Assembly (NCBI GenBank): GCA_050084515.1
Contig: CM114271.1
Coordinates: forward strand, 23,188,001-23,252,000
Origin: Blasia pusilla
Taxonomy: Eukaryota
Direction: 5' to 3'
Length of the DNA: 64,000 nt
Part shown: positions 4,355-60,018 of the stretch, one piece after another
Position numbering within the stretch: the stretch's first letter is position 1
Layout of the letters: each line of letters opens with the position of its first letter
The notes under the pieces: generated by a model
The model's input: the letters and a program-made list of their open reading frames with translations, nothing else
Told to the model about the DNA's origin: nothing
Databases searched by the model: none
Position numbers and translations under genes: made by a program

Positions 4355-6635
4355 GTATTCATGGCATGCAAAGGATTACAAGTCCTTTGAGGCCTCTATC
4401 TCTGTGAGAGAGAAGTATCCAACCTTTCAAGAGTTAGTTCCTCTGTTGATCAGTGAAGAGATGCGCCTAGTAGGCAACGGTAGCTCGTCTAGTCTGCAAG
4501 AGAGTGCGCTATTTGCAAGTTATGGATCAAACACAGGCAGGGATCGTGGCATAAACTTCCATGGTCGTGGTGGATATCAAGCATATGGAGGAAGAGACAC
4601 TCAATATAACGTCACTCAATCAACTACGAACCAGTATCAAACACAATCACAAGGTGGTGATGGTGGAAACCGTTGGGGTTGAGGTCAGCAGCAGAGGGTC
4701 CTTGGATCTTGCAATTACTATAAGATAAAGGGTCACTATGCAAAGTTTTGCTTCAAGAAGAAGTTAGATATGAGAACAGGAGCCTTGCAGCAACAAAACT
4801 ATGTGGAGCAACAACACCAAGAGCAGTACCAAGAACAACAACATTCACAAACGGAGCATCTCTTGGTCATGACTCATCATATAGGAGCAATGGTCAAGAA
4901 AGACTCGACAATAGATTAGTACATTGACTCTGGTGCATTAAATCATATGACCTCACAAGCTAAATAATTCAATAGTTTGGAGCCGATGAAAGATCCTGCA
5001 ATTGTGCTCAGAGGAGATGACACTCAACATCATATCACGCATACCGGTAAAGTTCCAATAGCATCAGATGGTCTTTGTGCTCTTGAAAATGTTCTCTATG
5101 TTCCTACCATTGCAAGAAATCTGATCTCTGTAGGACACATAGTAGAACAAGGTTATCAAGTGAAGTTTAACGTAGATGGTTGTTTCATTGAAACAATAGA
5201 TGACCAGACTACGATATCCAAAGGAACTAGATCTAGCAGAATGTTCAAATTAGATGTTTCTATGCCAGTGATTCAAACAACAAGGAATGGTCAAATCCGC
5301 CAACAAGTCACAGATCTAAATGGTCGGCATAAAAGAATTGGACATATGAATCTTCAAAGATTACAAAGTCTTTCATCATCTAATATAGTAATAGAACTCC
5401 CTAAATTAGCGAGTCTTGCTACGTTATAGGTATGTCCTGCTTGCCTATTTGGAAAACAAGCTAGATTTCCTTTTCCAAAGCAAGATAGAAGAGCATCCAA
5501 CATATTGGAGTTGATCCACAGTGATGTGTGGACAACATCACAACATAGCCTTAGTGATTGCTAGTACTTTGTTTCACTTATTGATGACTTCTCTAGATAT
5601 ATAGGGGTATACTTTCTGAAAGCCAAGTCATAGGTATTCTCAGTGTTCCAAACATTCAGAGTTCTAGTAGAGAAGCACACTGGACAACACATTCTGAAAT
5701 TGCGTTGTGATGGAGGATGAGAGTATCTTTCAACAGAGTTTGATGACTATTTTCATCAGAATGGCATCTAACGTCAAGTGACTTGCCGTTACACTCCACA
5801 ACAAAATGGAGTGGCTGAGAGGAAGAATCGAAATATTATTGAAGCGGCACGAGCTATGCTGAATGAGAAGAACATGCCTAAGGTGTATTGGTTAGAGGCT
5901 GTAGCATGTGCAGTCTTCTTAATAAACCAAACTCCTACAACAAGAGTTCATAATAAAACTCCATTTGAAGTCTTCACAGGAAGTAAACTTGATTTTTCCT
6001 TCTTGAAAGTATTTGGCTGTATTTGTTATGCTCATGTTCCTTCTCAGAGACGTCAGAAATTAGACCCCAAGTCTGAAAGATGTATCTTCATTGGTTATGC
6101 TTATGGAACTAAGGGATATAAGTGCTACATTCTATGCTCTAAGCATCTTATTATTAGTCGGGATGTTGTCTTTGATGAGCTAAAGTCACGGTATGCTCCA
6201 TCTGAGCCTATTCCACCTCTAAACTTGTCTGGTGAGGGGGAGAATATGACTACAAACCAAAAAACATTATCTTCAACTTCCCTAAGTACTAGTGCAGGAT
6301 TAGGAGAGGTCCTGGATTCATAAGTTAAATCTATGAGTCCATGGACGGGAAGAGTACATATTCAGTCTGTTGACACTAGTCAGAGCTCGGGTCAGGTGTC
6401 AGAGGCATCTACCTCTGAACAACAACTTCGTAGATCAAGTAGAGTTACACATCTAGTTCATAGATTCATAAATGAAGGTTTCCTTGCGACATATCATGCA
6501 TATATGATGACTATCCTTCAAGAGCAGCAACCGAGTTTTTCTGAAGAAGCTGCGAGTAAAGCCGAATGGATTGAAGCTATGGAGGAAGAGCTTGCTGCAT
6601 GAAGACATCAACAAACATGGGAGCTGATTGATATA
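4355..6635 (+). mobile_element. Ty1/Copia retrotransposon fragment (gag C-terminus, protease, integrase, start of RT), inactivated by stops
   Basis: Zinc knuckle CNYYKIKGHYAKFC; protease *YIDSGALNHMT; HKRIGHMN; IHSDVW, DDFSRY, TPQQNGVAERKNR; KLDPKSERCIFIGY; WIEAMEEELAA*RHQQTWEL. PR-INT-RT order is Copia. Confidence 0.95.
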
Positions 6636-6877
6636 TCTTCCGTCAGCTTCCTTCCCATTTTGTCTAACTCGATACTATGGTTAAGGGTAGGGTTAGGGTT
6701 GCTTGTACATACCCTATATAATTGAGAAGAGGACCAACCTCCACTCAATTTCTCTCATTGGAAATTTCGTTCTCCATGGTGGTCTATCTGTGTGAGAGCC
6801 GTTTTCCACCAATTATGCTTGTTTAGCAGTTTTCCATACTAGGGAGCGGGATCAAATCCTTCAGCGAGCCTGGAGAT

Positions 6878-7866
6878 TCATGTGGGAGGGGACTCACATT
6901 TTTTGGGTATGGGGAGATGGTAGGATATGAGTGGTACCTCATCCTTCTCAACGAGCACGTGTAGTGCGACATGCCCATGAGGAGTTGGGACATTTTGGAG
7001 TGAAGCGTACTTACAACTTACTCCAGATTCAGTATTGGTGGCGCGACATGCATACTGGGGTACAGAAGTTTGTGGCCAGATGTACGATATGTGACAGAGT
7101 GCGAGCATCCTTCAATGCTCCCACTCCGCAGTTACATCCTTTTCCGATTATGGGTTTAGGTTCTCGGTGAAGTTTAGACTTTGCAGGACCTTTGCCATTG
7201 ACGGGGCGTCATCACATATACGTGTTGGTCATGGTGGAGCATTTCTCCAAGTGGATAGAGTTGGTGGCACTACCGGACAAGGCGAGCGAGGGAAAAACTT
7301 ATGCGTTTCTAGATCGTGTGCTTAGTAACTTTGGTGCACCGGCGGAGGTGTTAACTGACCAGGGTACCGAGTTCAGGGGAGAGTTTCAGGCCTTCTGTGA
7401 TCAAGCACTGATAGATCACCGCACCACGTCCAGAGATCATCCTGAGGCGGATGGGTTGGCGGAGAGAGTAGTACAGACGGTGAAGAGAGGATTGCGCAAG
7501 TATGGCTTGCAACAAGGATAGTTGAGGGAGTGGGACCTACAGTTGCCATGGTTGGCTATGGGTTATCGCTTTAGTCGACAGGCATCCTTGGCGTCATTTT
7601 CACCATAGTTTTTGCTCTTTGGGAGAGAGCCAGATTTACCTGCAGCTATTCGAGGTGACATGGCAAAGGTGTTAGATCTTGATGATCCAGATGTGTGGGT
7701 ACAAGCGTGTTCTCAGAGGGCAGAGATTTTTTGTAGAGTTATGCCTATGGCCTTTGAGAACTTAGCTATTGCTCAGCATAGAGATACATTGAGGTACGCG
7801 ACCATTCGTGGAGGAGGTTATCGTCTGGGGATTAGGAGATTTCATCCTGGAGATTACGTGTATTGA
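6878..7866 (+). mobile_element. Ty3/Gypsy integrase fragment (HHCC zinc domain, DDE core, C-terminal region)
   Basis: HEELGHFG..YWW..CTICDR; SLDFAGP; VEHFSKW; VLTDQGTEF; HPEADGLAERVVQTVK; LLFGREPDLP. The C-terminal part is highly similar to 52230-52560 (minus). Confidence 0.93.
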
Positions 7867-15709: not shown

Positions 15710-17200
15710 TTGATTTTTAGGGTAAGAAATCGTCAAATCCTAAACCAGCTGCCTTGCCGCGGTCATAATCCTCGTTGTCTTCGCCATCCCCGTTGCCACT
15801 GTTAGCCACTTCCTCCGCCGCTAGTTATCGCACGCCGCTATTCTGGGCCACGTTCAGCCGCCAACACCATTCAAGGCCATGTCGGGCTGCCGCCGCCGGA
15901 CTTGGGTGAGTCCGTACGCGTTGTTGTCACTTTACACTCTCGACTTTGACAAGGTGACCTTTTCATTCATGGGGTCCTAGTTTTCTTTCCGCTTAGCTAT
16001 GTATTGAGGTTGTAGCTATGCGACGACGATCGAGTACGGTGTCATGCCGCAATGCGCCGCCAATTGCCGCGCCGTGCCGATCATAGCCGCACTGCACCGT
16101 CTCGATCATGGAGTCCACCATCATTGGGAGCAGAGTATGTATTGATGTTGAGGAAGAGGGTATGCTGCATCCCATCACCGAGTGTTGTTTCGTTTGTAGC
16201 CATTTTGTGCCGCACCATATTGCTGGATCTATACCGCATATTGAGGAGATTTGAGAATTATCAGTACCAGAGGAGTATGACTTACTAATTGGAGGAGTTT
16301 GTATAGTTGAGAAGTGACATCAAAATTTATTCAAGTTATCCATTCTGGCCTTTTTCCCTACACGTGTGAGGTAATTTTTGGGTATTTGGATAGTTATTTG
16401 GGGATATTGGGTTTCGTGCAGATGTTGAGAGCATCACTAATGTATGTGGTTTTTGGGACATAGATATGTGTGGAATGTCCAGAGTTGAGGGTATGTTCTA
16501 TCCTTGAGATGATAGAACAAAAGTTGATTTGCCACACCACGCCGCTTGAGAGGGAGTGTAGATTGAGTGCCGCATGTTTGGGTTGAGTGATTGAGGGATT
16601 ACTTATGAGATTGAGAGTGATCACGTGAGAGGGACACGAGGGTCATCACGGCGTCCTTTTGGGACTTTGAGAGGCGGGGTGGTGGACTTGAGAGTAGCTC
16701 TAGAGATTCTAAGGAGAGTCGCACGAGGTTTCGAGGGTCTCCATATGAGAGACCGCCTCGACCTCTTCCTGTGTCGTCATCATACGCGGGGGAGAACGTA
16801 GAGGAGTTTGTTAGTGTATCATCGCACACAGTGAGTGGTCTTGCAGCCTAGGACTACGAGATGGACGATCGGGGTAGAGGACGGCGTAGGTTTTTGGGTG
16901 CTAAAGGAACTATTGAGTTGCACAACTTCATTGCGGAGTTTATGAGTTGGTGTGATTCGCAAGAGGCCAAGAACTCTAGAGATTTCAACATGTTTACAAC
17001 ATGGAATGGAATATTCCAACACTTAGAGGAGGTATCCATGGACAATTTCCATGAGTTCTCTCAGGGATATGCCCATGAGATTAAGGCATGGACAGTCTAC
17101 TATAACCCACTCTATGTATCATGGACTAAGCCATTTCCAGATAAGGAGGAGGAGTTAGGAGAGGCTACTTCCTCTTCCACCAATGATATGTTGGGAGGGA
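15710..17200 (+). mobile_element. Gypsy family A 5' internal region and gag N-terminus (truncated)
   Basis: Inverted homolog of about 57170-58800. ORF 16861-17292 (FQHLEEVSMDNFHEFSQ..ELGEATSSST) matches ORF 57176-57358 (FQHLEGAPMDDYHEFSQ..ESGEATSSST). Confidence 0.85.
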
Positions 17201-19454
17201 TAACTCGAATTGGAGCAGTTGCATCTATGCAGAGTTGCAGACTAGCTACCAAGAGGTGCGGACGGAGAAGTTGCGTAGCATCCACTACTTAAAATTGGGC
17301 TCACATGGAGAGTGATGGATGGATGCTTACAGTGGTATTTTGATGTTGACTTCTTTTTCCAAGCTTGGAAAAAAGAAGGTTAATTTAGGCCCAAATATGG
17401 TCCACTTACTACTCTCTTCTAAATATTTCATGAATTTGAAAGCAAACAAAACAATGTCAAGAAGTTTTGAAGAGAAGAGGCGGATTCTGCTTTTTTTTTT
17501 TTAAGAGAGACTCTCCTCTCTCTCTCTCTCTCTTCCTCTCCTCTCTTCTCTTACTCTCTCCTCCCAGAATACTAGCCCCCGCCTGACGTGTAGGCACTGC
17601 TGGTCGTCGAGGCACCATCAAGGGTGTGTGTAGTGCCTTTGAGAATGTGAATGACTGTGGAACCTTGGCCTGCTGCCCATCGGTCCCCTCTTGTGGTTCA
17701 ATCTCAACCCCATGTCTCCATGGCTCGGGTACTCTTGCACCATCTCGAGTCACCACCGTAGTAGCCTAAACCTGAGCCGCACTATATATGAATCCCATAC
17801 TAGCGAGATCCTCACCCAGATCAGGGTAAGAGGTGGAAGTTGGAGTCACACTAGCTACTCTCGGCTCCGTGCCTTCCCTGAGCTGCATCATCGTCATGGC
17901 AGCAATCCTCTGCTCCAACTGATCGATGCGTGAGAGAAGCATTGGCTCTGGTGCTCCCGCTCCATCTCCTCTAGTTGGTGGTGGTCCTCTCCCACCACGT
18001 TCAGCAACACCTCCTCGGCCTCCTCCAAGACGACCGCCCCAAGGCCCTTGGCCTACCTCTCGACGTGCCTCTCGACGAAGGTCAAAACATCTATCCCTAG
18101 TGTGACCATATTTGTGGCAATAGTCACAATGATACTGTGGTGGGGCCAACCTCTATGGCTCTTGAGCAATCGGAGGTGCTCGTGGTCCTCTTCCATGCTA
18201 TGGGTAATCTCTCTACCTATGGGGCCCACCACATATCCAACAAGACATCATTGGTCCCTATTGGGCAACATACGTAGGCACGGGTCATTGCCTTACAGGC
18301 TCACGGTACCCGCCTTACTCTCTGGGCACACTGGCCTGCTCTCGTGGTACTGGTGCTCGCTGTGGCACCTGCGAGGCTACCGTCGCTCGTGGACATGTCG
18401 ACTCTCGAAAAAATCCAGTGGTCACTACCTACCCTCACTCATCTTAAGATCAATAAGCTCAGACAACTCGAAGACCACCTTAGATGTGAGTTCGCCATGT
18501 GAATAACGACTGCATCTTGAACTCTCTTCCGTAGTTCTCGGTCCAGAACCCTGTACCAATATGAATTGATTGCACCTCAGTCACTCCATAAATAGCAATG
18601 ATCAGCCTCCTCATGCGCGTGAATGCCTCTCTCAAACTCTCACCCGATCATTGCTAAAAATCCTGTAGAATCTTCATCTTGTCGGTGCGTACGCCCTGGT
18701 AGCTCTTCCCCAAATGTAGGAAGAATTCCACTTTGGGACTAAAGCTGGGTGGCCCTCTACCACCAGAGGTCTCGGCCACATCGCATGTATCACTGCTCTC
18801 CTCTCCATCTAGTCTCTGGGCTGATGGTGTGGGTCTCTCTCCTCTCACAATCCCATCATATGCCTCACAACCACAAGTGGATACATACGCCAATGGAGTC
18901 TAATACATCATCCAAGCATCAATCCACGAGTGGTCGGGAGGCATATGATAGGATTGTGAGAGGAGAGACGATGAGAGGATATATTGGACTCCAGTGTATG
19001 TATGCACTAGTGCTCGTGAGGCATATGATGTATGGAGGATGTATTGGAGTCCAATACATTCTCCAGGCATCAATCTCTACTGAATATAGGGATCGGAACT
19101 CCATGTAATCATCCATCGGAAGACCCTCCAAGTGCTGGAACAACCCCTTCCATGCCATGAAAGGGTTGAATCGTGTCGGGATCCGTATCTCCTGGAAGTC
19201 GCACCACGTGTCGAACTCCTAGATGAAGTCATCTAAGTCGATAATGCCCACTGCAGCCGAGGAACGATGTATGCCCCGATGGCTCATGTCGTCCATCTCC
19301 TGCCAAGTAACACTGCCTCTGTCTGCGATCTCATCACCAGACCGGCTATCTAGTGATGACGATCCAACCACGGATGGAAGTCGAGGTGTCTCCTTACTAA
19401 AAACCCCTCCATATCTCATCCCACTTCGTTGTCGTATAGTAAAATCATCCTGTA

Positions 19455-34849: not shown

Positions 34850-35350
34850 TGACCACAAATTTTGAGCTCCAATGTCAAAATTGCACATTGTTTCCTCAAC
34901 AACGTGCACGACTTCATCAAATTATCTTTTTTATCTGACCTTCGATTTGAAATTGGCGGCAACTACGGTGCAGCTCCACTGTCCATGCCAAAAGGTTCAA
35001 TAAAAAAAGAATGAGCTCCAAAGCTCTCTCTTCTTGGATATATCCTTTTCCTCTCCGAAGCTCCATGATAACATATGCTCACATGTCACTTGCTTGGGTC
35101 TTCACATGATATAGAGGTTCAAGGGCCACTTCCCAAAGTGTTAAGTCAACTCTATTCACAATGGTTACTTACAAAACAAAGTAAGTTTCTCTATATAGTT
35201 CCAAATGAGCCGAAATGAAGGGGAAACTGGCTCTCTCAAGCTCTCGAGGGCCTGGCCTTAACACTCCATCCTCAAACTCTTTAGGTTGTCCTCAAATATC
35301 CTTGAAGGGGCTCTACCATAAGCTCGTCGATCTATTCTAAAATACGTGAC
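34850..35350 (-). repeat. Decayed, internally deleted copy of family A LTR-like sequence
   Basis: 34860-34920 resembles 58835-58890, and 35160-35230 resembles 59640-59708, in the same orientation. Confidence 0.6.
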
Positions 35351-37554
35351 ATGTAAATTAAACAAATGTTGGAATAGAGATGCCATTTCTCGTCAAGGTC
35401 ACAAATTTCAACAAGAGATATTTTTTGGCAAAGAGAAAGGAACGTCAAGACATAAGCCAAGTAAGAAAGTGAGATAATTGCCATGAGGAAAGGGGCAATT
35501 TTGATTCAAGTTAGAAAAATGTTAAAATGTCAAAAACTACGGAGAGTGAGGTGCATGTAGGGCTTGATAGTGTGCATGCAACTCAATTATTGTGGGGGTC
35601 GCTGGGAGGGGAGCAAGGGCAAAGGCGGACAACACGCAAATATAGGAGTACAACATCCAATTTTGGGATAATCTCGATAGCAAAGTTTTCCTCAATACAC
35701 TTTGTAGTAAGGTTGGAGGATTGAAATGAACCCAATACAAACATGATATCCAAGAACCTCAAACCATTTTGAAAATTACTAGAAACAAAACCAATTGATT
35801 AACCAAGAGAATTGCTTTTGGACTCTATGTCGGAAGAAGCTAGTTTAGAAATGGAGGAAGTCATGAAAATTAATGAGAGACAAGAGAAAAGGGATATGCA
35901 TTTAGGCCGGTGTGGACCTTAATGGTCACAAGGAGATCCATGCAATGGGTCCATGATTAGAGAGTTTGGAGCATAGTTTTAGGGATGTAGCACCAACCAC
36001 AAGGCATGTTCGCAGCCAACGTAGACAATCATGTAGTTGATTGGATGATATAAGTCCTTGTAGGCCTTTAGGTGGGAACTACATCTACTTACCCCATATA
36101 GAAATAATGGAGATATATACATCCACAACTACCACTTGTGCGTGTTTGTCTAGAGGATGGCGTGGCATGCTAGGTGCATGACAACGACATTGGGTAGGTC
36201 TGTAGTTACAGTAACTCGTCATTTTGTAAACAAGAAATATATTCAATATCCATGCACATTTTTGGGGAACAAGAAGATGGATTATGACATCTAAATATAT
36301 GAATGATATGTTGAATAAAATCTCTTATTTTAATACATTTGCTCCAATCTCTAGTAATTTGCAGAGTTCCACACTCATATTTCAATGAGTTTAGTAATTG
36401 TCATACTTGCAACTTTGTGAGAAAGTTGCTTTTCGCTTGCAAGTAATTTGTGGGTATGCTACAATTGTAGAAATGTGAGCATGAGACTCCAAAATCACTC
36501 ATTTTTTGTGAATATTTTATGATTTTTGTAGTCATGAATTTTGGTATAAGTTTTTGGAGTTTTTGGAGAATAAATATTCACGTAGCGGGAATTTTTTTTG
36601 CCAAGGATTATCAAAATCCCAAAATTTTCTATAGTTAAAAAAAGACCCTTTTAAAATTTTAAATTTTTAATTGATGTTATTTCTTTTATTTTTTCATGAT
36701 CCAAAATCTAAAAAATCCAAAAAATCATTAAAAAAATTTAATTAAAATTTTTCTAGAAGTTTTCAAAGTTGAAAACTTGCATGGAAGAAAATTATAGATT
36801 TAGAAAAGATAAATATAAGGGTATGGCAAAGACATAAAAAGTTGTAAACTAGATAATTTTTTTTGAAAGGAAAAATCCAAATTTAATTTATAAGAATATT
36901 TAAACATAGAGGGATGATATTTTTTAATGAAATTTTTTTCGTGCAATATGATTTTTAACATCTAAATTATTTGTTCCTACTATTAATGATTAGGACTCTA
37001 CCTGTGTGGAAATTTAGATCCTTGAATTTTTGAATCTCCTTTGGAAATTTTCTTTATGGGGTTCCATAAAGTGATTTTTCCGATGGGAGAGATCCAACGG
37101 TGCGAGTAATCGTAGCCGGTTCAATTCAAAAATTACCGATTCATTTAAGACTCGTCGGAAGAAAACTGAGAAGAAATCAAGGGTTTTCTTTGTATGGGAT
37201 ATCTAAAACCCAGTTGGAAATCCAATTTTACCGTTCCCAATTATGAGATTTCGGAAATATTCCCGTTCCCATAGAAAAACTTCTTAGATTATGGATTTGT
37301 CCCTTTATTGATTGAAAAAAGACAATAAGAAGAAGAGTATATTCTAAACCTTTAAGATATTATTCACATAATTGAAAAGTCAAAAGACACATTGAATGAA
37401 TATAACATACATTTTGGGGTAATTTGGAACATGTCTTCAACTAAGGAGTCAAGCTTAATAATTTTGGGTAGTTTTCCAATTTTGACATGTACAAAAGATA
37501 TAGAAACCCAAAGAGATATATGATTCTTGAGAAATCTGAATATGGTTGATGTGA

Positions 37555-49129: not shown

Positions 49130-49456
49130 GCGCCAAGTCACCAAGGAGAGACCTTGGGAAGAGGGATGCCACGTCTTTTAGGATAGATCGGCGAGATAGA
49201 GCAACTTTCAGGATACTCGAAGAAAACCTTAGGAGGTCAAGGATGATGTGGTGAGACTATGGGTAATCTGAGAGAGTAGGTTTCCCCATTGTTTGGCTTA
49301 TTTAATTGGAGCTATGTTGAAAAACTTACTATTTTGGGCAAGTTACCATTTTGAGTATAGTTGGCTTTCCACTTTTGGAAGTGGAAAGCTAGGAGATGAC
49401 CTACAAGCATATGTTACCGTGGAGAGAGCTTTAGAGAGGGAAGGAGGTATACCTCA

Positions 49457-49547
<91 letters not shown>

Positions 49548-50240
49548 AGAGCTCATTCTCTTTTTGTTGAACCTAGCCTCTAGACATGAGACGGTGGAGC
49601 TATGGTCCCCCTTGCCTTGTGTGTGTAACCCAAGCCTCTCACTAGGAGAGTGGGTTTGGTTTGACATGAGAGAGAAATAGTTTTGTGTACCATGGAGACT
49701 TCATTGTAGTTGAGAGTATTACTTGATTTACAAAGAGAGAATGCATGAGTGAGAGGGCTACAATGAAAGAGCTCGCTGATTGCTCGTTTTTGTTGCAGTT
49801 TGGGGACCATGTTCCCTGCTTCATGGCTCATGGGAGTGCTCACACGAGCAAGTGCTATTGGTTTTTGTGCTTTGTTATACCGATTTTTAGTACGGGAGAG
49901 TGACGTGCGCAAGCACTGCTCAATTTTTGGTAGAGATTGAGTATGGGAGTGGGTTGCTCAATGTTGGTGCTCTTGGGAGCACCATGTAGGTCTCACGTTT
50001 TTATTTTTATAGGTGTGAGATTTTTTTTGGGAGTAATAAGCCTGGAAGCGCTGACAAAATTTGTGTAGGAATGAAGATTGAAGATTTGTACGACAGTCAT
50101 CGTCAATTTTTTATGGAAGGTCTAATGGAAAAACCAATTTGATACCATTGTAGATCAGAAATTTGTGCAGACCGTTGAAGAAATGGTGCAAAATTTTGAG
50201 TTTGGAGCACAAAGTTGTGGATGATCTTGCAAGCTGCCAT
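49130..50240 (+). repeat. Family A LTR-like copy, opposite orientation to 58800-59790
   Basis: Collinear reverse-complement matches: 49176-49202 vs 59762-59790, 49543-49675 vs 59368-59495, 50150-50230 vs 58815-58895. Confidence 0.8.
49459..49542 (+). repeat. (GA)42 microsatellite
   Basis: Perfect dinucleotide run counted directly. Confidence 0.97.
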
Positions 50241-51868
50241 GGCCATTGTGTGAGTTGAATTTTGAAATTGCTTTGGTTACTTGTGTGGGCGTAGAAACAA
50301 AATGAAGATATTTTATCTGAGGGGATAGGACAATGGCACATGTCTTGTGAGGTAGAAGTTGAGTGAAAAACTTAAGACCCCTAGCTTGAGGGCACGTTGA
50401 GAGCAAGAATCCAAGTTGGGGCAGATTTAGAAGATAGACCTGAATTTTGCGGGGATTTTTTGAGTAAAAGAGTTGGCAACATCGTTAACCATCAACTGCC
50501 CAAGTGCTGTCAGCTTAGTCTGTGGTTCAACACGCCTTGACGTCCGCACGTAGTCCTAGCCGTGTCCGTGATTGTCGCGTCCTCTGTATGGGCGAGACTT
50601 ACATATGGAACTTGAGCCGGCCTCAATCCCCGTTGTAGTTGCTGCCACTCACACCAGCTACCCACCTTCCACATCTGACTTGCTGCGACACTATAGCCGC
50701 TGCAAGGCACTCCCGGCGAGCCGTGCCTTGACTGTTTACGGACCCCTTTGGCGCCTACACGCGGTCAGACTATTGTCCGATTCACATCGGAACGATATGC
50801 CTTCGTTTGGAGGCATATCCTTGGAATATGCTAACTCTGTTCCCGCTCCACACAAGGTGGGGCGGAACAGAGCTCAAGCCTGATTGAAACGGAGGGCTCT
50901 CTTTCCTCCATTTTGACAAAAAAAGAGGGTTGCGGATAATCTTAGGATGAACGGGCACTCACACATAAGATTTCCATTTTGTGATAGTCTAAGTATTCTA
51001 GAGAGCTCCATTGCCCTTTTTAGAAGGCGAGTTACATAAAATAGTAGTTGTGAGAGTATATTAGACTAAGATAGTCAAATCGCCACATTTTATTCGTAGA
51101 GTCAAAATGACCATAATGAGAAGATCTTGAAACCCATTTAAATTTTTTTTGGATATGTGTCTGCAATATATATTAAAATCTTATATATTTCCGCGTAGAG
51201 TCATTTGTACCATTCAATGAGGATTTGGCTTATATGAAATTGTTTCTATATGCTCTAGATACAAGAAATATCTGCCTTGTCGTGCACATACACATCGCTA
51301 CACAACATACATTGCTATCACCGAACACACACACAAACATGCACGATCCCATGCTAATTCCTGACATCCAAACAACGAGACAAGAAGTACTAAAATATCT
51401 CCAATTAAAGTAAGATCCAATATCTCTCTACACCATCTCACACCATAGCTCTTAAAGGTGTGCACTCTCTCTCATGTCAAACCAAACTCACTCTCCTTAT
51501 GAGAGGCTTGGGTTATACTCACAAGGCAAGGGACCATAGCTTTGCCACTTCATGCCAAGAGGTTCAACAAAGACAGAATGAGCTCTCAAGCTCTCTCTCT
51601 CCTTGAGGTATATCCCTCCCCTCCCCCATGCTAACTCATGGCATCCAGACAACGAGACAAGAAGTACTAAAATATCTCCTATTGCCCCCCTAGTTGGTGG
51701 TTAGGTCCCTCTAACTCCACATAGCCATCTATCCCTACCTACCATGACATACATCTCTCAGATGCTAAGAGCAAGAAGGCCGGATGCTCATGTGGCCCCA
51801 TCGTTAGTCGCCTTCCTGTCATCCATGTCACAGAAAAATTCGGAATTGAAACCTACCTAGTATCTCCT

Positions 51869-52560
51869 CTATGTACATCTGGGACACATCCATCGTCCCC
51901 GAGGAACCCTAGTGAGAGGTGGCGTCAGACATGCCATATGCCAACCTCTCGAACATCCATCACATACTAGCATCGTGGCCGCACCACGGGCAGAACCACA
52001 CAACATACAACGCAAGCGTGCAGAAACTACTGCTAAGCTCGGATCTACTGTACCATCAATGTAAGGAAGGCAAGATGGCGCACAATTACGCACATGGTCC
52101 TTCCATACCCTACCATCGCGTCCCTTCAGCAAGAGAACACCGGATGGCAAAACGTCAGGCACTCTCAGGATAGTGCGCCCTGCAATCACATCCAACGTGA
52201 TCGATGCGTTCTGCTGCAAGCAGACATAATCTCACTGATGAAACGTCCGGATAGTTGGTCGATAACCACCATCTTGAATAGTCGCATACCTCAACGTATC
52301 CCGATGCTACGCAATCGCCAAGTTCTCGAACGCCATGGGCATCACTCTCCTAAACAACTCAGCCCTCTGAGAACATGCTCGCATCCATACATCTGGGTCA
52401 TCAATGTCCACCAACTCACCAGCATCTCGACAAATGGCCGTAGGTAAATCTGGCTCTCGGCCATAAAGTAGCAAGTACGGTGAAAAAGACGCTAAGAATG
52501 CCTGCCTGCTGAATCTGTATCCCATCGCCAACCAAGGAAACTGGAGGTCCCAATCTCCAA
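51869..52560 (-). pseudogene. Integrase C-terminal region ending in a PHD finger
   Basis: WDLQFPWLAMGYRFSRQ..SPYLLLYGREPDLP, then CMLC..MLVCDGCSRGWHMACLTPPLTRVPRGRWMCPRC, a canonical C4HC3 pattern. Confidence 0.92.
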
Positions 52561-52619
52561 CATGCCTAAATAGGCTGACGCGTGCCATGCTGGCACTGAC
52601 CCCTCATCACTCTCTCCAT

Positions 52620-53988
52620 GCCATCGAGCTCCAATCGCATCTCGCTGACTCGGGCATGGATTATGACTCAACCCATCTGCATCTTGATTGAGCATTCCTG
52701 GTCTATGTACCACCTGAAAATCATACTCTTACAACAACAGAGCCCATCTCGCAAGCTTCCCCGTAAGCTTGTCGGACTCCATCAAGCACTTTAGTGGTTG
52801 ATGATCAGTGATGAAGGTAAAGGGATTGCCGAATAACTAACACCTGAAATGCGCGACAGCCCACACTGCAACCAAGAACTCACCCTCATACGAGCTGTAC
52901 TTCGTGTCTGTAGCGATGTTCGAGCAGCTAGCGTAAGCCACCACAAACTCTGTACCCTCATCATCATGTTGGGTGAGCACCGCTCCAAGCCCCAACATGC
53001 TCCAATCTGTGTGCAACTGGAAAGGACGCCCCCTCATCGGACTCCTCAAGATGGGCGCGGACGTCAACCTATCCTTGAGCAACCGAAATGCTTTCTCTTG
53101 CTCATCCCCCCAATGCCACTCGTGATCCACCTTGGTCAGCAAGGTTAGCGGCTTCGCAATCAAACTGAATCCCTTGACGTACCGCCGATAGAAGTTCGCC
53201 AATCCCATGAATGCGCGAACACGGCTCACATCTGTAGGGCGTGGAATGCGTGAGATAGCCTCTACCTTTGTCTGCTGAACACCAAGGCCCCCTCGGTATA
53301 TCGTATGACCCAAGTACTCAATCTGGTCGTAGAAGAACTTGCACTTGCCAGGATGTAGCTTTAGCCCATGTTATTGCAATCGTCAAAACACCTCCTCTAG
53401 ATGTCGCTCATGCTCCTCAACCGTGGCGCTAAAGACTACGATGTAATCAATATAACACCTAGCAAAATCCAAATGAGCCAAGATCCTATCCATGACCCTC
53501 TGAAACTCAACCGGGGCGTTCTTTAACCCAAATGGTAAGAACGGCCACTGGTACAAACAATCCTTCCCGTGAGGATCGATGCCCCTAAATGCCGTCTTCT
53601 GCCTGTCCTCCAATGTGATAGGCAGCTGATGGTATCCGGCTCGCAAATCCAATGAATTGAAAACCTTTGCACACATCCGCCTATCCGTCCAAGTGCCATG
53701 GACATCCTTCTTGGCGGGCATGACAGTGGCAGATGGATACTCCCCATGCAACATCTCCACTAGTCCTGCTCCAACCAAGTCCTGGCTCCTACTCTGAATC
53801 AGAGCCCTGTCCATATCATTGTGCCTATAGGGCCGTCGAAAGATTGGCGTATCACTCGACAACTCAATGCGGATCCCTGGTCCCTTCAACGTACCCAAAT
53901 CCTCCATGCTAAACGCAAAGCAGCTCCTATAACTCCTGAGGAATTGATGTATTCGGCGCCGCTCTCCTCCTCTAAACTTAGGGCCCAT
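52620..53988 (-). pseudogene. Gypsy reverse transcriptase and RNase H
   Basis: LDLRAGYHQ, KTAF, LPFGLKNAP, CYIDYIVVFS (YxDD decayed), FMGLANFYRRYV, LHTDWS..LGAVLTQ, YSSYEGEFL, QDADGLS. Confidence 0.95.
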
Positions 53989-54359
53989 ATCTGGCTCCCA
54001 AGTCTCTATCGTGACTATGGTAGGACTCTCCGGCGCGGATATCAGTGGTTGCTATGGTGCAACCCCGTCTCAAACAACAATACTTGACCGCTCTCTTACA
54101 GCCAACTGTAAACTCTGATCTCCTCTACATGCAGTGCCCGGAACCACGCTCGATGTTGTGGCTATCATCTCCAGGCGTACCTGCAAAACATCCCAAGAAG
54201 TCCAAGGGTGTCTCTCTTGATCTCCCCTAGTGGACCTTCTCGGGTCTTGGCCCCAGCCACTGCCTCCACCGTCTTGGTAGGAATGGGGCTCACCAACACA
54301 ACTGGTGTGATCTGTCGCGATCTCATCCGACGCTGCTCAGCCACTCCCAAGCTAAAGAT

Positions 54360-55290
54360 CCATGTCAAGCAGTTCAGGTCCATCGCCTAACCCAAGACAT
54401 GGCATCGTGATGCCTCTGATACTGATGGTACTGTCGTCACTCTTGTGGGAAATCCCATCGCCCGCTCTCTCTCGTCGGCGTTGGGCTCCACCAACCTCTG
54501 AACCTGGTCATCCCAAACCAAGCCAGGACCAGCCTCCTTGTATGCATAGGAAGCTGGAAAACTCACAAATGTGGGAAAGGTTGCCCGCGGCTTGCCTGCC
54601 CTATTGACCACAGTCAACGGTGGTCGATCATCATGCCTCATTGCGTATGCGCGACGACCTGGATCCAAAATGGAATCCACTAACAAATGGGAGGGGCGCT
54701 CCACTCTCGCATACACCCTCCGTAACACCGCATGGGGCACCAAGTTGGTCCACCATAGACGCCGGTGATGGGCTCTAGAACCTACACTCGCCGCATCCAA
54801 GAACAGTACTGGGCCGATCCAGGCACACACCTGATGAGCACTTGTCACCACCGGTGACCTGGAGTCTCTTAAGATCGGCACATTCTCCAGAATGTAGGTT
54901 GGCGAACGAGACAAGTGCTCCTGCAAGTGCCGTAAGATCCTCAACATCTCCCAAAACAACCTGCAGCCTCGTCCAACACTCGATTGGCCCTAACATGGCC
55001 AACCGGCAATGACCAAATCAATGGTGCCTAACCGCTCTAAGTCCTGCGCCCCCAACAACGAAATATCCCTCGGTAGGGAAATCTGGTATCCCTATACTGT
55101 GGACGTAGACATGTTGGGAAAACGTAGGCATAACTGCGCTACATGTCGTAGTGAGATGCACCTCGCAACATCATCACTCTCCACATACAGGTACTGTTGT
55201 ACTCGCACTCTTGCCTGCAAAACAACAGCTAACCCGGTGCTAATCCCTCCAAAGAGATCTAACACTCAAATACCCTCCTCCGGGGTACAC
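54360..55290 (-). pseudogene. DNMT3/DRM-like C5 cytosine DNA methyltransferase domain inside the retrotransposon polyprotein
   Basis: One reading frame with 4 stops: motif I VLDLFGGI (55242-55265), II YLYVESD, III PRDISLL, IV IDLVIAGWPC*G (PC at 54993-54998), V LFWEMLRIL, VI YILENV, VII LDAASV, VIII AHHRRLWWTNL, IX EPNADERERAMGFP, X RCHVLG*AMDL. Confidence 0.93.
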
Positions 55291-55664
55291 CACACAATGG
55301 GTGTGGTATCCAAGGGTGTCATCGTAGCACTCCCTGCTACCTCGGGTTCCTCAGACCCATCATGCTCCGGTGCAAACGCCTCGCTCCACGCGGTTTGCAC
55401 ATGCTCATCTGCCAATCGTCACAGCTCCTCAGTCGAGCCCCACGGCGGCACCTCTCCTCCACATAATGATGCGGTTACCATAACACTCCTCTCCATAGAA
55501 ATGTCAGGAACGGGAGTATCCTCTGCATGGACATGTCCCTCAATCAAATCACTAGGTCAAGTGATGGCACTGCTAAATTCTGCAAAGTTCGCCATCTCTC
55601 CTGGCCGTTGCTCGATCACTACACATGTGAATCAAACGGGTAATGAGCTAAGGCACCCATCACT

Positions 55665-56027
55665 TCACTGCCATCTTGGTCTATAGCATGCTAACTCTTC
55701 CCAGTAATCCCCGGAAAATCCCATCGGGTATAACACTGCTCCACCAACCAAGATGTCGTAGGACTCTATATAAGTCACTATCGCCTTGGCTCGCACCACG
55801 GACTCATCTGTAGGATGTCCCGGGCGAATCCTCACCACGACCTCCTGTCGGGTGATATACTCCGTGGTACTCGCTCCACCCAAGGATGTCTGTATCCGGA
55901 ATGGACAACGCTCCACATCGGCTCTCGTCAAGCCCAATCCTCTGAATGACGCTTTCCCCAACATCAGGGGTTGCACTCTTGAATCCAACAAGACGTGCTG
56001 CAGACTAAAAGCTCTACCTCCGGACAA
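55665..56027 (-). pseudogene. Retrotransposon aspartic protease-like domain
   Basis: VLLDSRVQPLMLG (LDSG-like) ... YDILVG. Confidence 0.75.
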
Positions 56028-56036
56028 CGTGAAAGA

Positions 56037-57720
56037 CTAGGGAAGCCTAGTTCGTTTCCTGGCTCCCCCTTGTTGTGGATCCAACTCTGCGGCTGCCCCA
56101 CGCGTCACAACTGCGGTAGCCTCCATCTGGGCAACCCGGCACATCCAACCAAGATCCTCCATATCTCCTGGCTGCTCCATATGATGTCGATGCCACGGAT
56201 CCAGCGTCGGTAATCTCAATGCCATAGTGGCAATCTGCTCATGTAGCTGATGTATCTGAGCACCCATCCTAGCCTCACGCCCGGCATCTCCCTCCACGCA
56301 TCTAGGTGGTAGGAGCCTACCTCCTCCACGGGCAGCTCCACCACCCTGTCGGGCAAGTCCAGCTCCTCGTCCACCAACGGGACCACCTGGTGCATAATCT
56401 CTAGGCCCACCCGGACCGGCTACTCGCTCTGGTGCCCTCTCTCGCCCTCGGTCCGGATGTAACTCAGAATGTAAACTGAAATACCTGGCGCGTGTATGAC
56501 CATACCTCTGACAATAGTCACACTGATAACCTCCTGGTGTAGCACCATCTCCTCCTCCATGCTGAGGCACACGTCCATGACCATGACGAGTGCATTCGTG
56601 CTGATGATGGGCTCCACCACATGACCAACAAGTAATAGTAGGCTGCTGTTGAGCCGCATATGAAGGCGCAGGTCTCTATGGTACGGCCTCCTGATACCCT
56701 CCTTGAGCTCGTGGTGCCACAGTCGACCTATCTTGGAGTCCACGTTCTTTGCCACGTAGTCTGCATAATCGTGGATCGCTCTTGCCAGAACCCATGGTGG
56801 CTACGCTCTCCTCCGCCATGTTGCGCTCAATGTTCTCGGCGGTCCTAAAAACATCTCTCAACATAGGGGAGGTGTTCATAAGAAGCACCCCCTCCCGCAC
56901 CCGTGTCCACAGGGTCCGGTCCAGCATCGCATACTATGACTGGATAGCCTGAGCCTCTATCACCCCCTGAGTGACGTTGATCAATCGGCGCAAGCAAGTG
57001 TAAGCCTCACGCAAAATCTCATCCGGGCGCCTCTCGAAGTCGTGGATGCTATGCAACTTCTCCGTCCGTACCCCCTGGTAGCTCACCCTCAACTCAGCAA
57101 AGAACTCAACCACATGGTTGAACGTGGGACAAACCTGACTAGACGGTGCAACTACTCCCGTGCGAGTGACCCCTCCTAAAATGTCACAGTGGAAGAGGAA
57201 GTAGCCTCTCCTGACTCTTCCTTCTCATCTAGGAACGGCTCCGTCCATGACACATAATATGGGTCATAGTAGAGCCTCCATACCTCGATCTCACTTGCAT
57301 ATCTCTGAGAGAACTCATGGTAATCGTCCATGGGCGCCCCCTCTAAATGCTGGAACATACCGTTCCATGTTGTAAACGGGTTGTACTCTCTAGAGTTCCT
57401 GGCCCGTTGGGAGTCGCACTAACTCCTAAACTTTGCTATGAAATCGTGCAACTCTATCGTGCCTACTGCACCTGAAAACCTATGCGGTCCTCTACCCCGA
57501 TCGTCCATCTCGTACGCCCAACTGGTAGGACCACTCACAATGTATGGCGATGTGCTCAAAAAATCCTCTACACGCTCCCCCTTGTCTAAAGATGACACAG
57601 AAGGAGATCGAGGTGGTCTCTCATATGGAGACCCTCGAAACCTCGCACCACTCTGGGTAAACCCTCCAGAGCTACTCTCAGGTCCACTACCTCACCTCTC
57701 AAAATCCTGAAAGGATGCCA
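56037..57720 (-). pseudogene. Gag (capsid-like region, CCHC knuckle, Gly/Arg-rich tail)
   Basis: CDYCQRYGHTRARY knuckle remnant; homologous to the gag pieces at 16.6-17.2 kb, 17.8-19.4 kb and 63.8-64.0 kb. Confidence 0.8.
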
Positions 57721-60018
57721 TGATGGCCCTCATGCCCCTCTCACACGATCATTCTCAACCTCGCGAGTAATCCCTCAATCACTCATCCCAAACATGCAGC
57801 ACTCCATCTACACTCTCCCTCCCCGAGACGGGTAACGTGCGGCAACAAGCGGCGTGGTGCGGTAAATCGACCAGGCTATCATCTCATCGACAACCTACCC
57901 TCAACTCCGGACATCCCACACACGTCTATGTACCCTAAACCACATACATAAATGATGCTCTCAGCATCCACACACCCAATATCCCCAAATAAACTACCCA
58001 AATCCCATAATCCCTCACGTGCAGGGTAAAGGACCAGAATGGGTAACCTGAACACATGTCGATGTCCCTCCTCAGCAATTGCAAATCTCGACCCCAACTC
58101 GGTCATGGAGACAAATCCTCCAATCAGAAAGTCACACTCCTCCCGTACTGACACTGCTTAAAACTCCTTGATGGATAGTGCAGTTCCAGTGGAAAGGTGC
58201 GGCGTTGCAGGCGGCACGGAACGACTACAAACGGCACGGCCCTCGATGGTGGGATGCGGCACTCGGCGGCATACCCTCCTCAATCAACAATAAACCCACA
58301 CTCTGCACCACAATGACGGTGCGGCTCCGCAATCGAGAGGGTGCAGTGCGGCCACGAGCGGCACGACGCGGCAATTGGCGGCCGGTTGCGGCTACAGGCG
58401 TCACGACACGGTACTCAATCGTCGTCGAGCGGCTACCAATCACAACATAGCAGCATGAAATCAAAACTCAAACACCATAACCGGAGGTCATCTACCATCA
58501 CTGGTTGATGACAAAACTGCGATAATGGTGGCGACCAAACCAAAGTACGTGGTGGCGGTGCAAGTGAGAGAATCAACGGTGGTCGTGGGAGATCCTCCAC
58601 TTTGTAATGGCGGCAATAGCAACCAAAGGGTGGACAACGTCCGAATGCAGCTCTGAGCAACGCTGGCCAACTGCAAAGGCCAACGGTAGCTGGAGGACGG
58701 TGGACCATTGACGATGACAGTTGACCATTGATTGGTGATGGTGACTATGATGGCGACGGCCGGTTTAGGGTTGAACAATTTAACCCTAAAAATCACCTAG
58801 CAATGGAAAATTTTCAAGATTGAGCATAACTTTTTACTCGCAACTCCAAATTGTGCACCGTTTGTTGCACAACGTGCACAGATTTATGATCTACAACAAT
58901 GTCAAAAAATATTTGGAATTGGGCATTCCAATAAAACTGACAGGGACTGTTATAAAGCCCAGTGTCTCTTTCTCCTACACAAAATTTGGCAGCGCTTCCG
59001 GGCTGATTTCTCCCAACCAAAATATAAGACCTGTAAAAATACAAATCAGCAAGCTACATGGTACTCTTGAGAGCACCGGTATGGGGCAACATGTCCCCAT
59101 AATTAATCTCTATCAGAAATGGGCAGCGCTTCCGCGCGCCACTCTTCCACACGAAAAATCGGCAAATGCAAAGAACAATCAAAGCAGCCCTTGCTCCGGT
59201 GAGCACTCCCATGAGCCGCTGAACGGGGAACACGGTCCCCAACCTGCAAAAACAGCGAGTGACCAGCGAGCTCCCCCATGAAGCTTTCTCACTCTCTCAT
59301 TCTCTCTTTGTAAAGTAAAATCCAATCTCTCTCTACACCATCTCACACCATAGCTCTCAAAGGTGTGCACTCTCTCTCATGTCAAACCAAACCCACTCTC
59401 CTTATGAGAGGCTTGGGTTACACTCACAAGGCAAGGGACCATAGTTCCGCCGCCTCATGCCAAGAGGTTCAACAAAGAGAGAATGAGCTCTCAAGCTCTC
59501 TCTCCTTGAGGTATATCCCTCCCCTCTCCCAAGCTCTTTCCATGGTAACCTATTCTCCCAAGTCACCTCCTTGGCTCTTGACCTGATGTAGGAGGTCAAG
59601 GGCCACTTGAAAAAAATAAAATTTGATCATATATTCAAAATGGTACTTACCTAAAATAGTAAGTTCCTCAATATGGCTCCAAATGAGCCGAAACGAAGGG
59701 GAAACCTGCACGTCATCATCGACCTATTGAGCGTGTCCTCCACTAATCACGAAAGCGCTCTACTAGATCTCACCGATCTATCCTAAAAGATGTGATAGCC
59801 TACATGGAGAGGACTACCAATGTTTAAGCAAACAGTGTACTATCCGACTCACAAAGAGCTATGACCTCAACCAAGACCAAGAAACAATTTCCCAATATGG
59901 TTTTTTAATACGATTCCAATCCTTCATGTTGCTTCATATGCTTTGTTTGAGGGTTTTTTATGTGATGATGTTGATCACTATGAATTGTGTTGTCTTGATT
60001 TAAGGTCATTCCTCTCTT

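Follow-up and report, generated by a model that had tools for sequence, protein, structure and literature searches.

A PHD finger encoded on the minus strand of a 64,000-nucleotide stretch of Blasia pusilla DNA (assembly GCA_050084515.1, contig CM114271.1, positions 23,188,001–23,252,000; hereafter the window) is almost certainly the C-terminal integrase PHD of an old green-lineage clade of Ty3/Gypsy retrotransposons that includes the DNMT3-bearing elements of Klebsormidium. A complete C4HC3 finger with all eight ligands is encoded from 52012 to 51872, and is immediately followed by a TAG stop (51869–51871). Pfam assigned it to PF00628 (E-value of 3.5e-12; 46.6 bits vs. a cut-off of 24), while an AlphaFold model based on 81 sequences reached a predicted local distance difference test score (pLDDT) of 80–88 across the finger and superposed on the PHDs of ATXR5, BHC80 and BAZ2A/B with a root-mean-square deviation of 1.0–1.4 Å over 46–48 columns. 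The C-terminal part of the integrase was poorly modelled (pLDDT under 50 at residues 1–19 and 51–66). Ligands, Pfam match and fold thus confirm the intact C4HC3 finger proposed in the initial annotation. A chance cluster of cysteines was ruled out by the Pfam match, the fold and the 83–100% likeness of all 150 scored genome matches, and a captured host gene beside the element was ruled out by the finger being in frame with the integrase in L031 (a fuller copy of the element) and in algal relatives.

The finger belongs to an abundant family. When the 390-Mb assembly (26 contigs) was searched, 11,398 first-look candidates were obtained for the PHD region and 12,204 for the DNMT3-like methyltransferase (numbers that are not copy numbers), and for each domain 150 of the 150 scored candidates matched. 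In 18 of 20 PHD matches (from the 150, picked mostly for long open frames) a methyltransferase was present within 10 kb, and a PHD lay downstream in 19 of 20 methyltransferase matches (from the 150, five taken for long frames and 15 from the top of the list), 10 of which had all ligands and no stop. Across 20 spaced stretches of ~10 kb, 31,906 of 200,000 bases (16%) matched the family, with diverged subfamilies counted. Its layout is gag, protease (PR), DNMT3-like methyltransferase, reverse transcriptase (RT), RNase H (RH), integrase (INT) and PHD, with more than 1,000 residues, including RT and RH, between methyltransferase and PHD. Since Gag, PR and methyltransferase share a frame in copy L034, and methyltransferase and RT-to-PHD share one in L031, we infer a single Gag-Pol; the protein P0004 (2,358 aa) holds the entire domain set within one open reading frame.

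Compared with a subfamily less than 80% identical (2–6 copies per domain), the ratio of nonsynonymous to synonymous substitution (dN/dS) was highest for the PHD (0.20; five copies, 230 codons), followed by the methyltransferase (0.13; three copies), RT (0.11), RH (0.10) and INT (0.06), and ranged from 0.33 to 0.55 inside the main subfamily. Judged by these codon ratios, both the PHD and the methyltransferase are under purifying selection.

Relatives were sought with an integrase-PHD query among long proteins (at least 1,377 aa), which yielded 240 matches, 120 of them listed. The PHD was present in 117 of these 120, the methyltransferase (absent from the query) in 109, and both together in at least 106, a co-occurrence raised by the length filter because the latter favours multi-domain proteins. 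All 11 relatives without a methyltransferase call carried the PHD (seven keep a decayed methyltransferase trace in profile searches and four none), whereas P0082 has the methyltransferase without the PHD. In all 117 cases the PHD lay 11–19 residues behind the C-terminal region of the integrase, and exactly 12 residues behind it in 104. The methyltransferase was situated before RT in seven listed relatives (i.e., the layout of Klebsormidium and likewise of the Blasia family), between RH and INT in 99 (including the five chlorophyte genera Pleodorina, Tetrabaena, Scenedesmus, Monoraphidium and Astrephomene), and could not be placed in three; decayed versions were kept in the same place in volvocine relatives. 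The pairing of a PHD with a DNA methyltransferase, which the initial annotation had claimed for one element, is therefore borne out by lasting co-occurrence among the listed relatives and by purifying selection on both domains. As a side observation, 109 algal-type relatives (P0006, P0007, P0025, P0090 and others) run 60–500 aa beyond the PHD, and by eye these tails comprise a stretch resembling Tudor and a domain like that of Rossmann amino-methyltransferases. An Atlas search with such a tail gave weak N6-methylase matches (best score 0.82) that serve as a lead only; if true, these elements would carry two methyltransferases plus a PHD.

In a tree built from eight genome copies and 27 of the 120 listed proteins (35 rows in all) and rooted on Blasia chromodomain elements as the only outgroup, all PHD/DNMT relatives sat on a long branch apart from these elements. 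The group with the RH-INT layout, together with its DNMT-less members except P0079, formed one clade (support 99), while the basal order of the before-RT group was weakly supported (33–66). A midpoint-rooted tree (60 of 100 rows) grouped the Blasia family with the K. nitens elements, and the methyltransferase tree roughly mirrored that of the integrase-PHD relatives. In shorter searches, the methyltransferase was found in Calypogeia, Sphagnum, Marchantia and Riccia (50–69%), and the integrase end with PHD in Marchantia (eight gene models, 75–84%), Calypogeia and Sphagnum; these bryophyte matches outside the Blasia genome were separate fragments, and both domains were not seen in one element among them. 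The eight Marchantia models are annotated as PHD-domain proteins (P0243, P0246, P0252, P0259, P0261, P0288, P0314 and P0316, for the models Mp2g13720, Mp1g18210, Mp5g07880, Mp3g00200, Mp2g19240, Mp4g07990, Mp4g23350 and Mp2g20450), match the integrase end and PHD of the element, and look like pieces of it. The kinship with algal-type Gypsy lineages suggested by the initial annotation is supported by the listed relatives, their domain layouts and the trees. The clade probably has a single ancient origin, in which one Gypsy lineage would have acquired DNMT3 and a PHD before the chlorophyte/streptophyte split.

The copy in the window is itself a decayed member of the family, with the following features:

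51278–59797, minus strand: whole decayed retrotransposon of 8.5 kb (full copies ~10.4 kb), delimited by its A and B repeat units together with the target duplication, with deletions relative to L031
59798–59801, minus strand: 4-bp target-site duplication, 5′ side, same as 51274–51277
59311–59797, minus strand: 5′ repeat A1, which begins with TG and measures 514 bp in full copies, with a TATA-like word near 59515
59472–59487, minus strand: 16 nt in A1 complementary to the bases just past A1, a possible self-primer
59296–59311, minus strand: position of the primer-binding site, complementary to the 5′ repeat of the element itself
56793–57505, minus strand: gag-like region, broken (by position and tblastn with L031; no Pfam match)
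56400–56675, minus strand: two zinc-knuckle-like motifs (translation, tblastn)
55680–56021, minus strand: aspartic protease region (matches P0004 and P0082, where Pfam gives PF13650/PF13975)
54345–55265, minus strand: DNMT3-like C5 cytosine methyltransferase domain with three stops (PF00145, E-value of 3.1e-5, stops read as X)
53265–53837, minus strand: reverse transcriptase with an 87-bp internal deletion (PF00078)
52681–53100, minus strand: RNase H (PF17917/PF17919)
52048–52558, minus strand: integrase C-terminal remnant, zinc-binding domain and catalytic core deleted (intact in L031; PF17921, PF00665)
51872–52012, minus strand: C4HC3 PHD finger, last domain of the polyprotein (stop at 51869–51871)
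51682–51695, minus strand: purine-rich tract right before the first B repeat, limits approximate (same place in all copies with a B1 start)
51625–51681, minus strand: repeat B1, 5′ part only, deletion-fused to A2
51406–51641, minus strand: repeat A2, 3′ part only
51278–51404, minus strand: terminal repeat B2, ~128 bp, CA end
51274–51277, minus strand: 4-bp target-site duplication, 3′ side, paired with 59798–59801

The earlier statement that the PHD ends the pol frame holds for the family, as in L031, where RH, INT, PHD and the stop codon lie in one 786-aa frame, but not for the window copy. Here, ~845 bp with the zinc-binding and catalytic domains of the integrase are missing at 52557/52558, a deletion that shifted the frame; two stops lie between this deletion and the PHD, and the open frame of the PHD measures only 120 aa. 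In the window copy, further losses relative to L031 amount to 475 bp ahead of the protease and 87 bp within RT, besides part of the 3′ repeats. From its stop codons and deleted integrase core, this copy reads as dead, capable of neither chromatin docking nor methylation. Elsewhere in the window, more diverged (70–78%) fragments of the same family occur at 6836–7864 (plus strand), 15996–17285 (plus), 34984–35351 (minus) and 49167–50243 (plus), comprising part of the integrase, part of the 5′ internal region and A repeats, and the family matches 12,228 window bases in all. Remains of a Copia-type element are present at 4968–6320 (plus strand; PF22936, PF13976 and PF25597), and no transfer RNA gene was found in the window.

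The gag-PR-RT-RH-INT order of the element, with a DDE integrase, is that of Ty3/Gypsy elements, as are the TG...CA ends with a target duplication, but the two ends are not identical long terminal repeats (LTRs): the 5′ end is A and the 3′ end is B-A-B. Full copies read A (514 bp)-coding-B (128 bp)-A-B, starting with TG and ending with CA, and their paired A repeats differ by a median of 3.0% (0.8–12.9%, 22 pairs). For 29 copies with an A start and B end, target duplications were perfect over 4 bp in 22 and had one mismatch in three, while three copies lacked the terminal B and one had no match; six further copies yielded no pair, and two copies of the form A-coding-B had a duplication. Because a purine tract lies ahead of the first B and the primer-binding position comes after the first A, the repeat defined by reverse transcription would be B-A, whereas ends of the integrase type delimit A-B. 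At the internal B|A joint, the sequence forms an inverted repeat around a 2-nt spacer, as expected for a cleavable end junction, and a circular complementary DNA (cDNA) cut at a B|A-type joint would yield the observed A...B-A-B form. Random cutting of a symmetric two-repeat circle is unsupported, since none of the 29 copies has B before A1 (i.e., an A-B-A start). These split repeats in combination with an integrase pose a separate question on cDNA integration. Regarding target choice, a weak symmetric preference was seen, with A or T three bases beyond either edge of the duplication at 22 of 25 sites. Of the copies L040 and L035, one lies within degenerate telomere-like repeats and the other within a tandem repeat.

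The bases past A1 have their complement within A, 28 nt below the TATA-like word, which suggests Tf1-like self-priming. This match spans at least 11 nt in 16 of the 29 copies, is shorter in five, and was not found by pattern in eight. In the minimum-energy fold of the predicted 5′ RNA, the primer segment pairs inside A and not with the primer-binding position; because the fold favours this other pairing, it is only the complementarity that argues for self-priming.

The family is represented in RNA. At 88% likeness, a full copy collected 5,424 of 10.1 M records from the first of three runs labelled as the same species, 5,658 of 12.0 M from the second and 5,743 of 11.1 M from the third, with all 30 bins covered. 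Since the reads are mostly 90–95% alike, many copies contribute RNA. First mates lay mainly opposite the element strand in every bin (in the PHD bin 133 vs. 6, 155 vs. 3, and 117 vs. 7), so that the family appears to be sense-transcribed, on the assumption that the libraries were stranded in the usual way. The B|A joint was crossed by 52–84 reads per run on the main strand and the A|B joint by 8–12, while no transcription start was seen in the reads. Family-wide RNA of this kind is evidence of transcription only, and of neither protein nor movement. Many reads depart from the reference L163 at fixed positions (55, 143 and 179) in or beside repeat B and continue into other sequence, which suggests expressed subfamilies with different B repeats.

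For the methyltransferase domain of a stop-free sister copy, the best sequence match was DNMT3A (E-value of 7.5e-14, vs. 8e-5 for DRM2 and 2.5e-4 for bacterial enzymes), and its model adopts the DNMT3A fold (E-value of 1.4e-17, pLDDT 83). Among the 109 listed relatives with the domain, the catalytic Cys is kept in 103, the Glu in 104 and the two Arg in 107 and 103, and all four motif patterns occur in 18 of 36 genome copies. Related DNMT3s of dinoflagellate retrotransposons conferred CG methylation in yeast (PMC5890265). No host DNMT3 was recovered in a PF00145 search, which element copies swamp. The small contigs C20 and C23 of the assembly hold intron-free C5 methyltransferases unlike that of the element (L131–L134; 24% identity for the C23 one), and these contigs are possibly bacterial, phage or viral.

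The closest solved PHDs are those of CHD4, PHF12, KDM5 (PHD1), BHC80, BAZ2 and ATXR5, several of which read unmodified H3K4 (with which some structure entry titles agree); readers of this type have an acidic surface for H3R2/K4. PHDs that read H3K4me3 have an aromatic cage with a Trp two residues before the His ligand. The finger lacks such a cage: this place is taken by Gly in 112 of 117 and 59 of 64 relatives. When the finger was modelled with H3(1–30), the predicted complex scored 0.42 vs. 0.03 for the best control, with at least 89% of contacts agreeing between runs and a partner pLDDT of at least 54. The mark applied is cleared by 51 of 78 solved pairs and by 2 of 108 mismatched ones, in a benchmark that does not extend to peptides; at scores of 0.60 or lower it is reached by only 5 of the 78 solved pairs and by all 4 passing mismatches of 180. 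The prediction is weak support and may derive from likeness to solved PHD-H3 structures. Histone-guided integration, as proposed in the initial annotation, is no more than plausible. The ADD domain of DNMT3 consists of a GATA-like finger and an all-Cys PHD joined to the methyltransferase, and the initial annotation had drawn an analogy to it. In the element, a His ligand is present, no ADD family was among the eight Pfam matches, and the finger is attached to the integrase. The analogy is weak because the PHD tracks the integrase and not the methyltransferase: the C4HC3 finger stays in place while the methyltransferase moves, decays or is lost.

On balance, we lean slightly towards the PHD being an integrase tether for H3 tails, with a methyltransferase that acts separately on the cDNA. 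The protease would separate the domains of the polyprotein; the PHD would stay on the integrase and help dock the integration complex on nucleosomes via the H3 N-terminus, most likely with K4 unmethylated; and the methyltransferase, packaged in the same particle, would methylate CG sites in the new cDNA. Reader and writer would thereby serve one replication cycle as separate modules, without an ADD-like switch. Several observations weigh against such a tether and writer. The PHD of the Blasia family is basic (+3 to +5 in genome copies, +4 typical), is mostly stripped of the acidic residues retained by algal relatives, and has no acidic residue in its C2–C3 loop, where 99 of 115 mostly algal-type relatives have at least two. 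The Pro before the catalytic Cys of the methyltransferase is replaced in most chlorophyte-type relatives (E in 56 and P in 37 of 109), and the Klebsormidium element methyltransferase was inactive in yeast, a result its authors call inconclusive (PMC5890265). Decay of the repeats (C/T per C of 0.102 at CG, 0.105 at CHG and 0.037 at CHH) has a spectrum that looks like that of ordinary host silencing. Finally, the flanks of 24 insertions showed no significant GC bias and no significant enrichment of repeats (10 of 24 vs. 91 of 300, p-value of 0.26) or of the family itself (7 of 24 vs. 51 of 300, p-value of 0.16).

The loss of acidic residues also speaks for a land-plant PHD that is no longer a histone reader but extends the integrase as a basic DNA-binding or structural part, with only algal relatives still reading tails, which we regard as unlikely, though worth serious consideration. 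Median net charge of the finger shifts from –4 in the long, mostly algal-type set to +1 in the short, land-plant-rich set (64 complete fingers, 43 of which have no acidic loop residue), and the PHD has the highest dN/dS among the domains. This is countered by the Asp after Cys3, which is kept in 108 of 117 relatives and near-invariant in alignment A2, by the land-plant Calypogeia P0328 subgroup, which retains the acidic loop, and by the weak pass of the H3 fold. It is quite improbable that the PHD steers or activates the methyltransferase like the ADD domain of DNMT3A, so that the element would methylate host chromatin at or beyond the insertion site. Such coupling would fit the co-occurrence among listed relatives and genome copies, and in the 99 listed relatives with the methyltransferase right before the integrase both could stay fused; yet this co-occurrence is inflated by the length filter, each domain is found without the other, the C4HC3 finger has no ADD match, and the two domains are far apart in the Blasia polyprotein. 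Very unlikely, in our view, is a methyltransferase-like domain retained as a nucleic-acid binder (of RNA or the cDNA end junction) instead of as a catalyst, with the PHD as the sole chromatin-facing part: while the inactivity of the Klebsormidium domain in yeast (PMC5890265) and the decayed versions kept in place in volvocine relatives agree with it, more than 90% of 109 relatives retain the Cys, the Glu and the two Arg of the catalytic site, and the DNMT3 fold is predicted at pLDDT 83.

Among elements described so far, the nearest is KnitGypsy-Dnmt3 of Klebsormidium nitens (de Mendoza et al. 2018, PMC5890265), which like the Blasia family has a DNMT3-like domain in a Gypsy Pol and DIRS-like A-coding-B-A-B repeats. 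The word 'PHD' occurs 0 times in the main and supplementary text of that paper, although its Fig. 4c may show one (PMC5890265). A partial K. nitens Pol (P0113, KFL_009030040), not proven to be among the copies of that paper, has 56% identity over 81% of the integrase query and carries its methyltransferase before RT. As described there, the DNMT3 capture took place in the K. nitens lineage (PMC5890265), whereas the pairing reported here spans chlorophytes to bryophytes and makes up a large share of a plant genome. DIRS/PAT elements, including SymbioDIRS-Dnmt3, likewise have A-coding-B-A-B ends and DNMT3 in Pol (PMC5890265), but the Blasia family differs in its DDE integrase, TG...CA ends and 4-bp duplications. 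Membership of DIRS/PAT was rejected on the integrase and duplications, and the domain map leaves no tyrosine recombinase gene. Phygy (REXdb, PMC6317226) was rejected as well, as its NCGN target preference was found in 0 of 25 duplications. Chromoviruses also have a reader at the integrase C-terminus, and among them Tcn1 is predicted to self-prime (REXdb, PMC6317226), but their reader is a chromodomain and not a PHD, and the Blasia family is 21–37% identical to chromodomain elements of the same genome. Chromovirus identity was rejected given the stop right after the PHD, the lack of a chromodomain and the long separate branch. The initial annotation overlooked this, as well as the split repeats and the earlier description of the element type. 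The large chromodomain-bearing Gypsy family of Blasia (L164–L188; 1,636 first-look candidates) offers a natural control for insertion-site comparison.

Chlamydomonas REM1 reportedly has its PHD in a separate antisense open reading frame with a chromodomain; by this description it differs from the Blasia element, whose PHD is sense and in Pol. Chlamydomonas Gypsy-7a_cRei carries a PHD in its Gag-Pol that was proposed to affect insertion, with a reported intergenic bias; compared by description only, it differs in that its legend lists no methyltransferase (PMC9940879). More generally, many retrotransposons encode PHDs (PMC6673714), and PHD-transposon fusions are listed in the supplement of 10.1101/2021.11.30.470311. 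EpiLTRs resemble the Blasia family in combining a chromatin reader with a cytosine methyltransferase inside a single LTR element, but they use a chromodomain as reader, have a DNMT that groups as sister to DNMT4, and carry an adenine methylase in addition; their authors consider them distinct from the 'Gypsy-DNMT3' of streptophytes (bioRxiv 10.64898/2026.05.21.726589). The range 'streptophytes and dinoflagellates' is repeated in PMC12344493. Because REXdb was compiled from elements whose two LTRs resemble each other, elements of the present kind would be prone to escape it, and 'methyltransferase' is not mentioned in its accessible text (PMC6317226). In the literature searched, with subscription papers and theses thinly covered, no paper was found on the PHD-plus-DNMT3 pairing, its chlorophyte/bryophyte range or the integration route. 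While the element type itself has been described, new aspects are the combination of PHD and DNMT3, a clade that appears both deep and wide-ranging, a land plant in which it is abundant and transcribed, and a finger that has lost its acidic surface for reading.

DNMT-carrying Gypsy elements were earlier known from one charophyte at low copy number, and the present data suggest an old green-plant lineage that joins a histone reader to a writer. Methyltransferase fragments of this sort could lead to DNMT genes being overcounted. For Marchantia, maps of chromatin and of methylation have been published; together with the relatives there that are 75–84% identical, they make histone-guided insertion and element-made methylation testable with existing data. 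A more speculative picture, which we consider doubtful as a whole, would be that one Gypsy lineage captured DNMT3 and a PHD before the chlorophyte/streptophyte split, with elements still making up as much as ~1/6 of a land-plant genome, that these prime themselves and circularise their cDNA, that the internal CA-NN-TG junction and not the cDNA ends is cut, and that the PHD docks on H3K4-unmethylated nucleosomes while the element's own enzyme pre-methylates new copies. If true, this clade would supply bryophytes with a mobile source of de novo DNA methylation.
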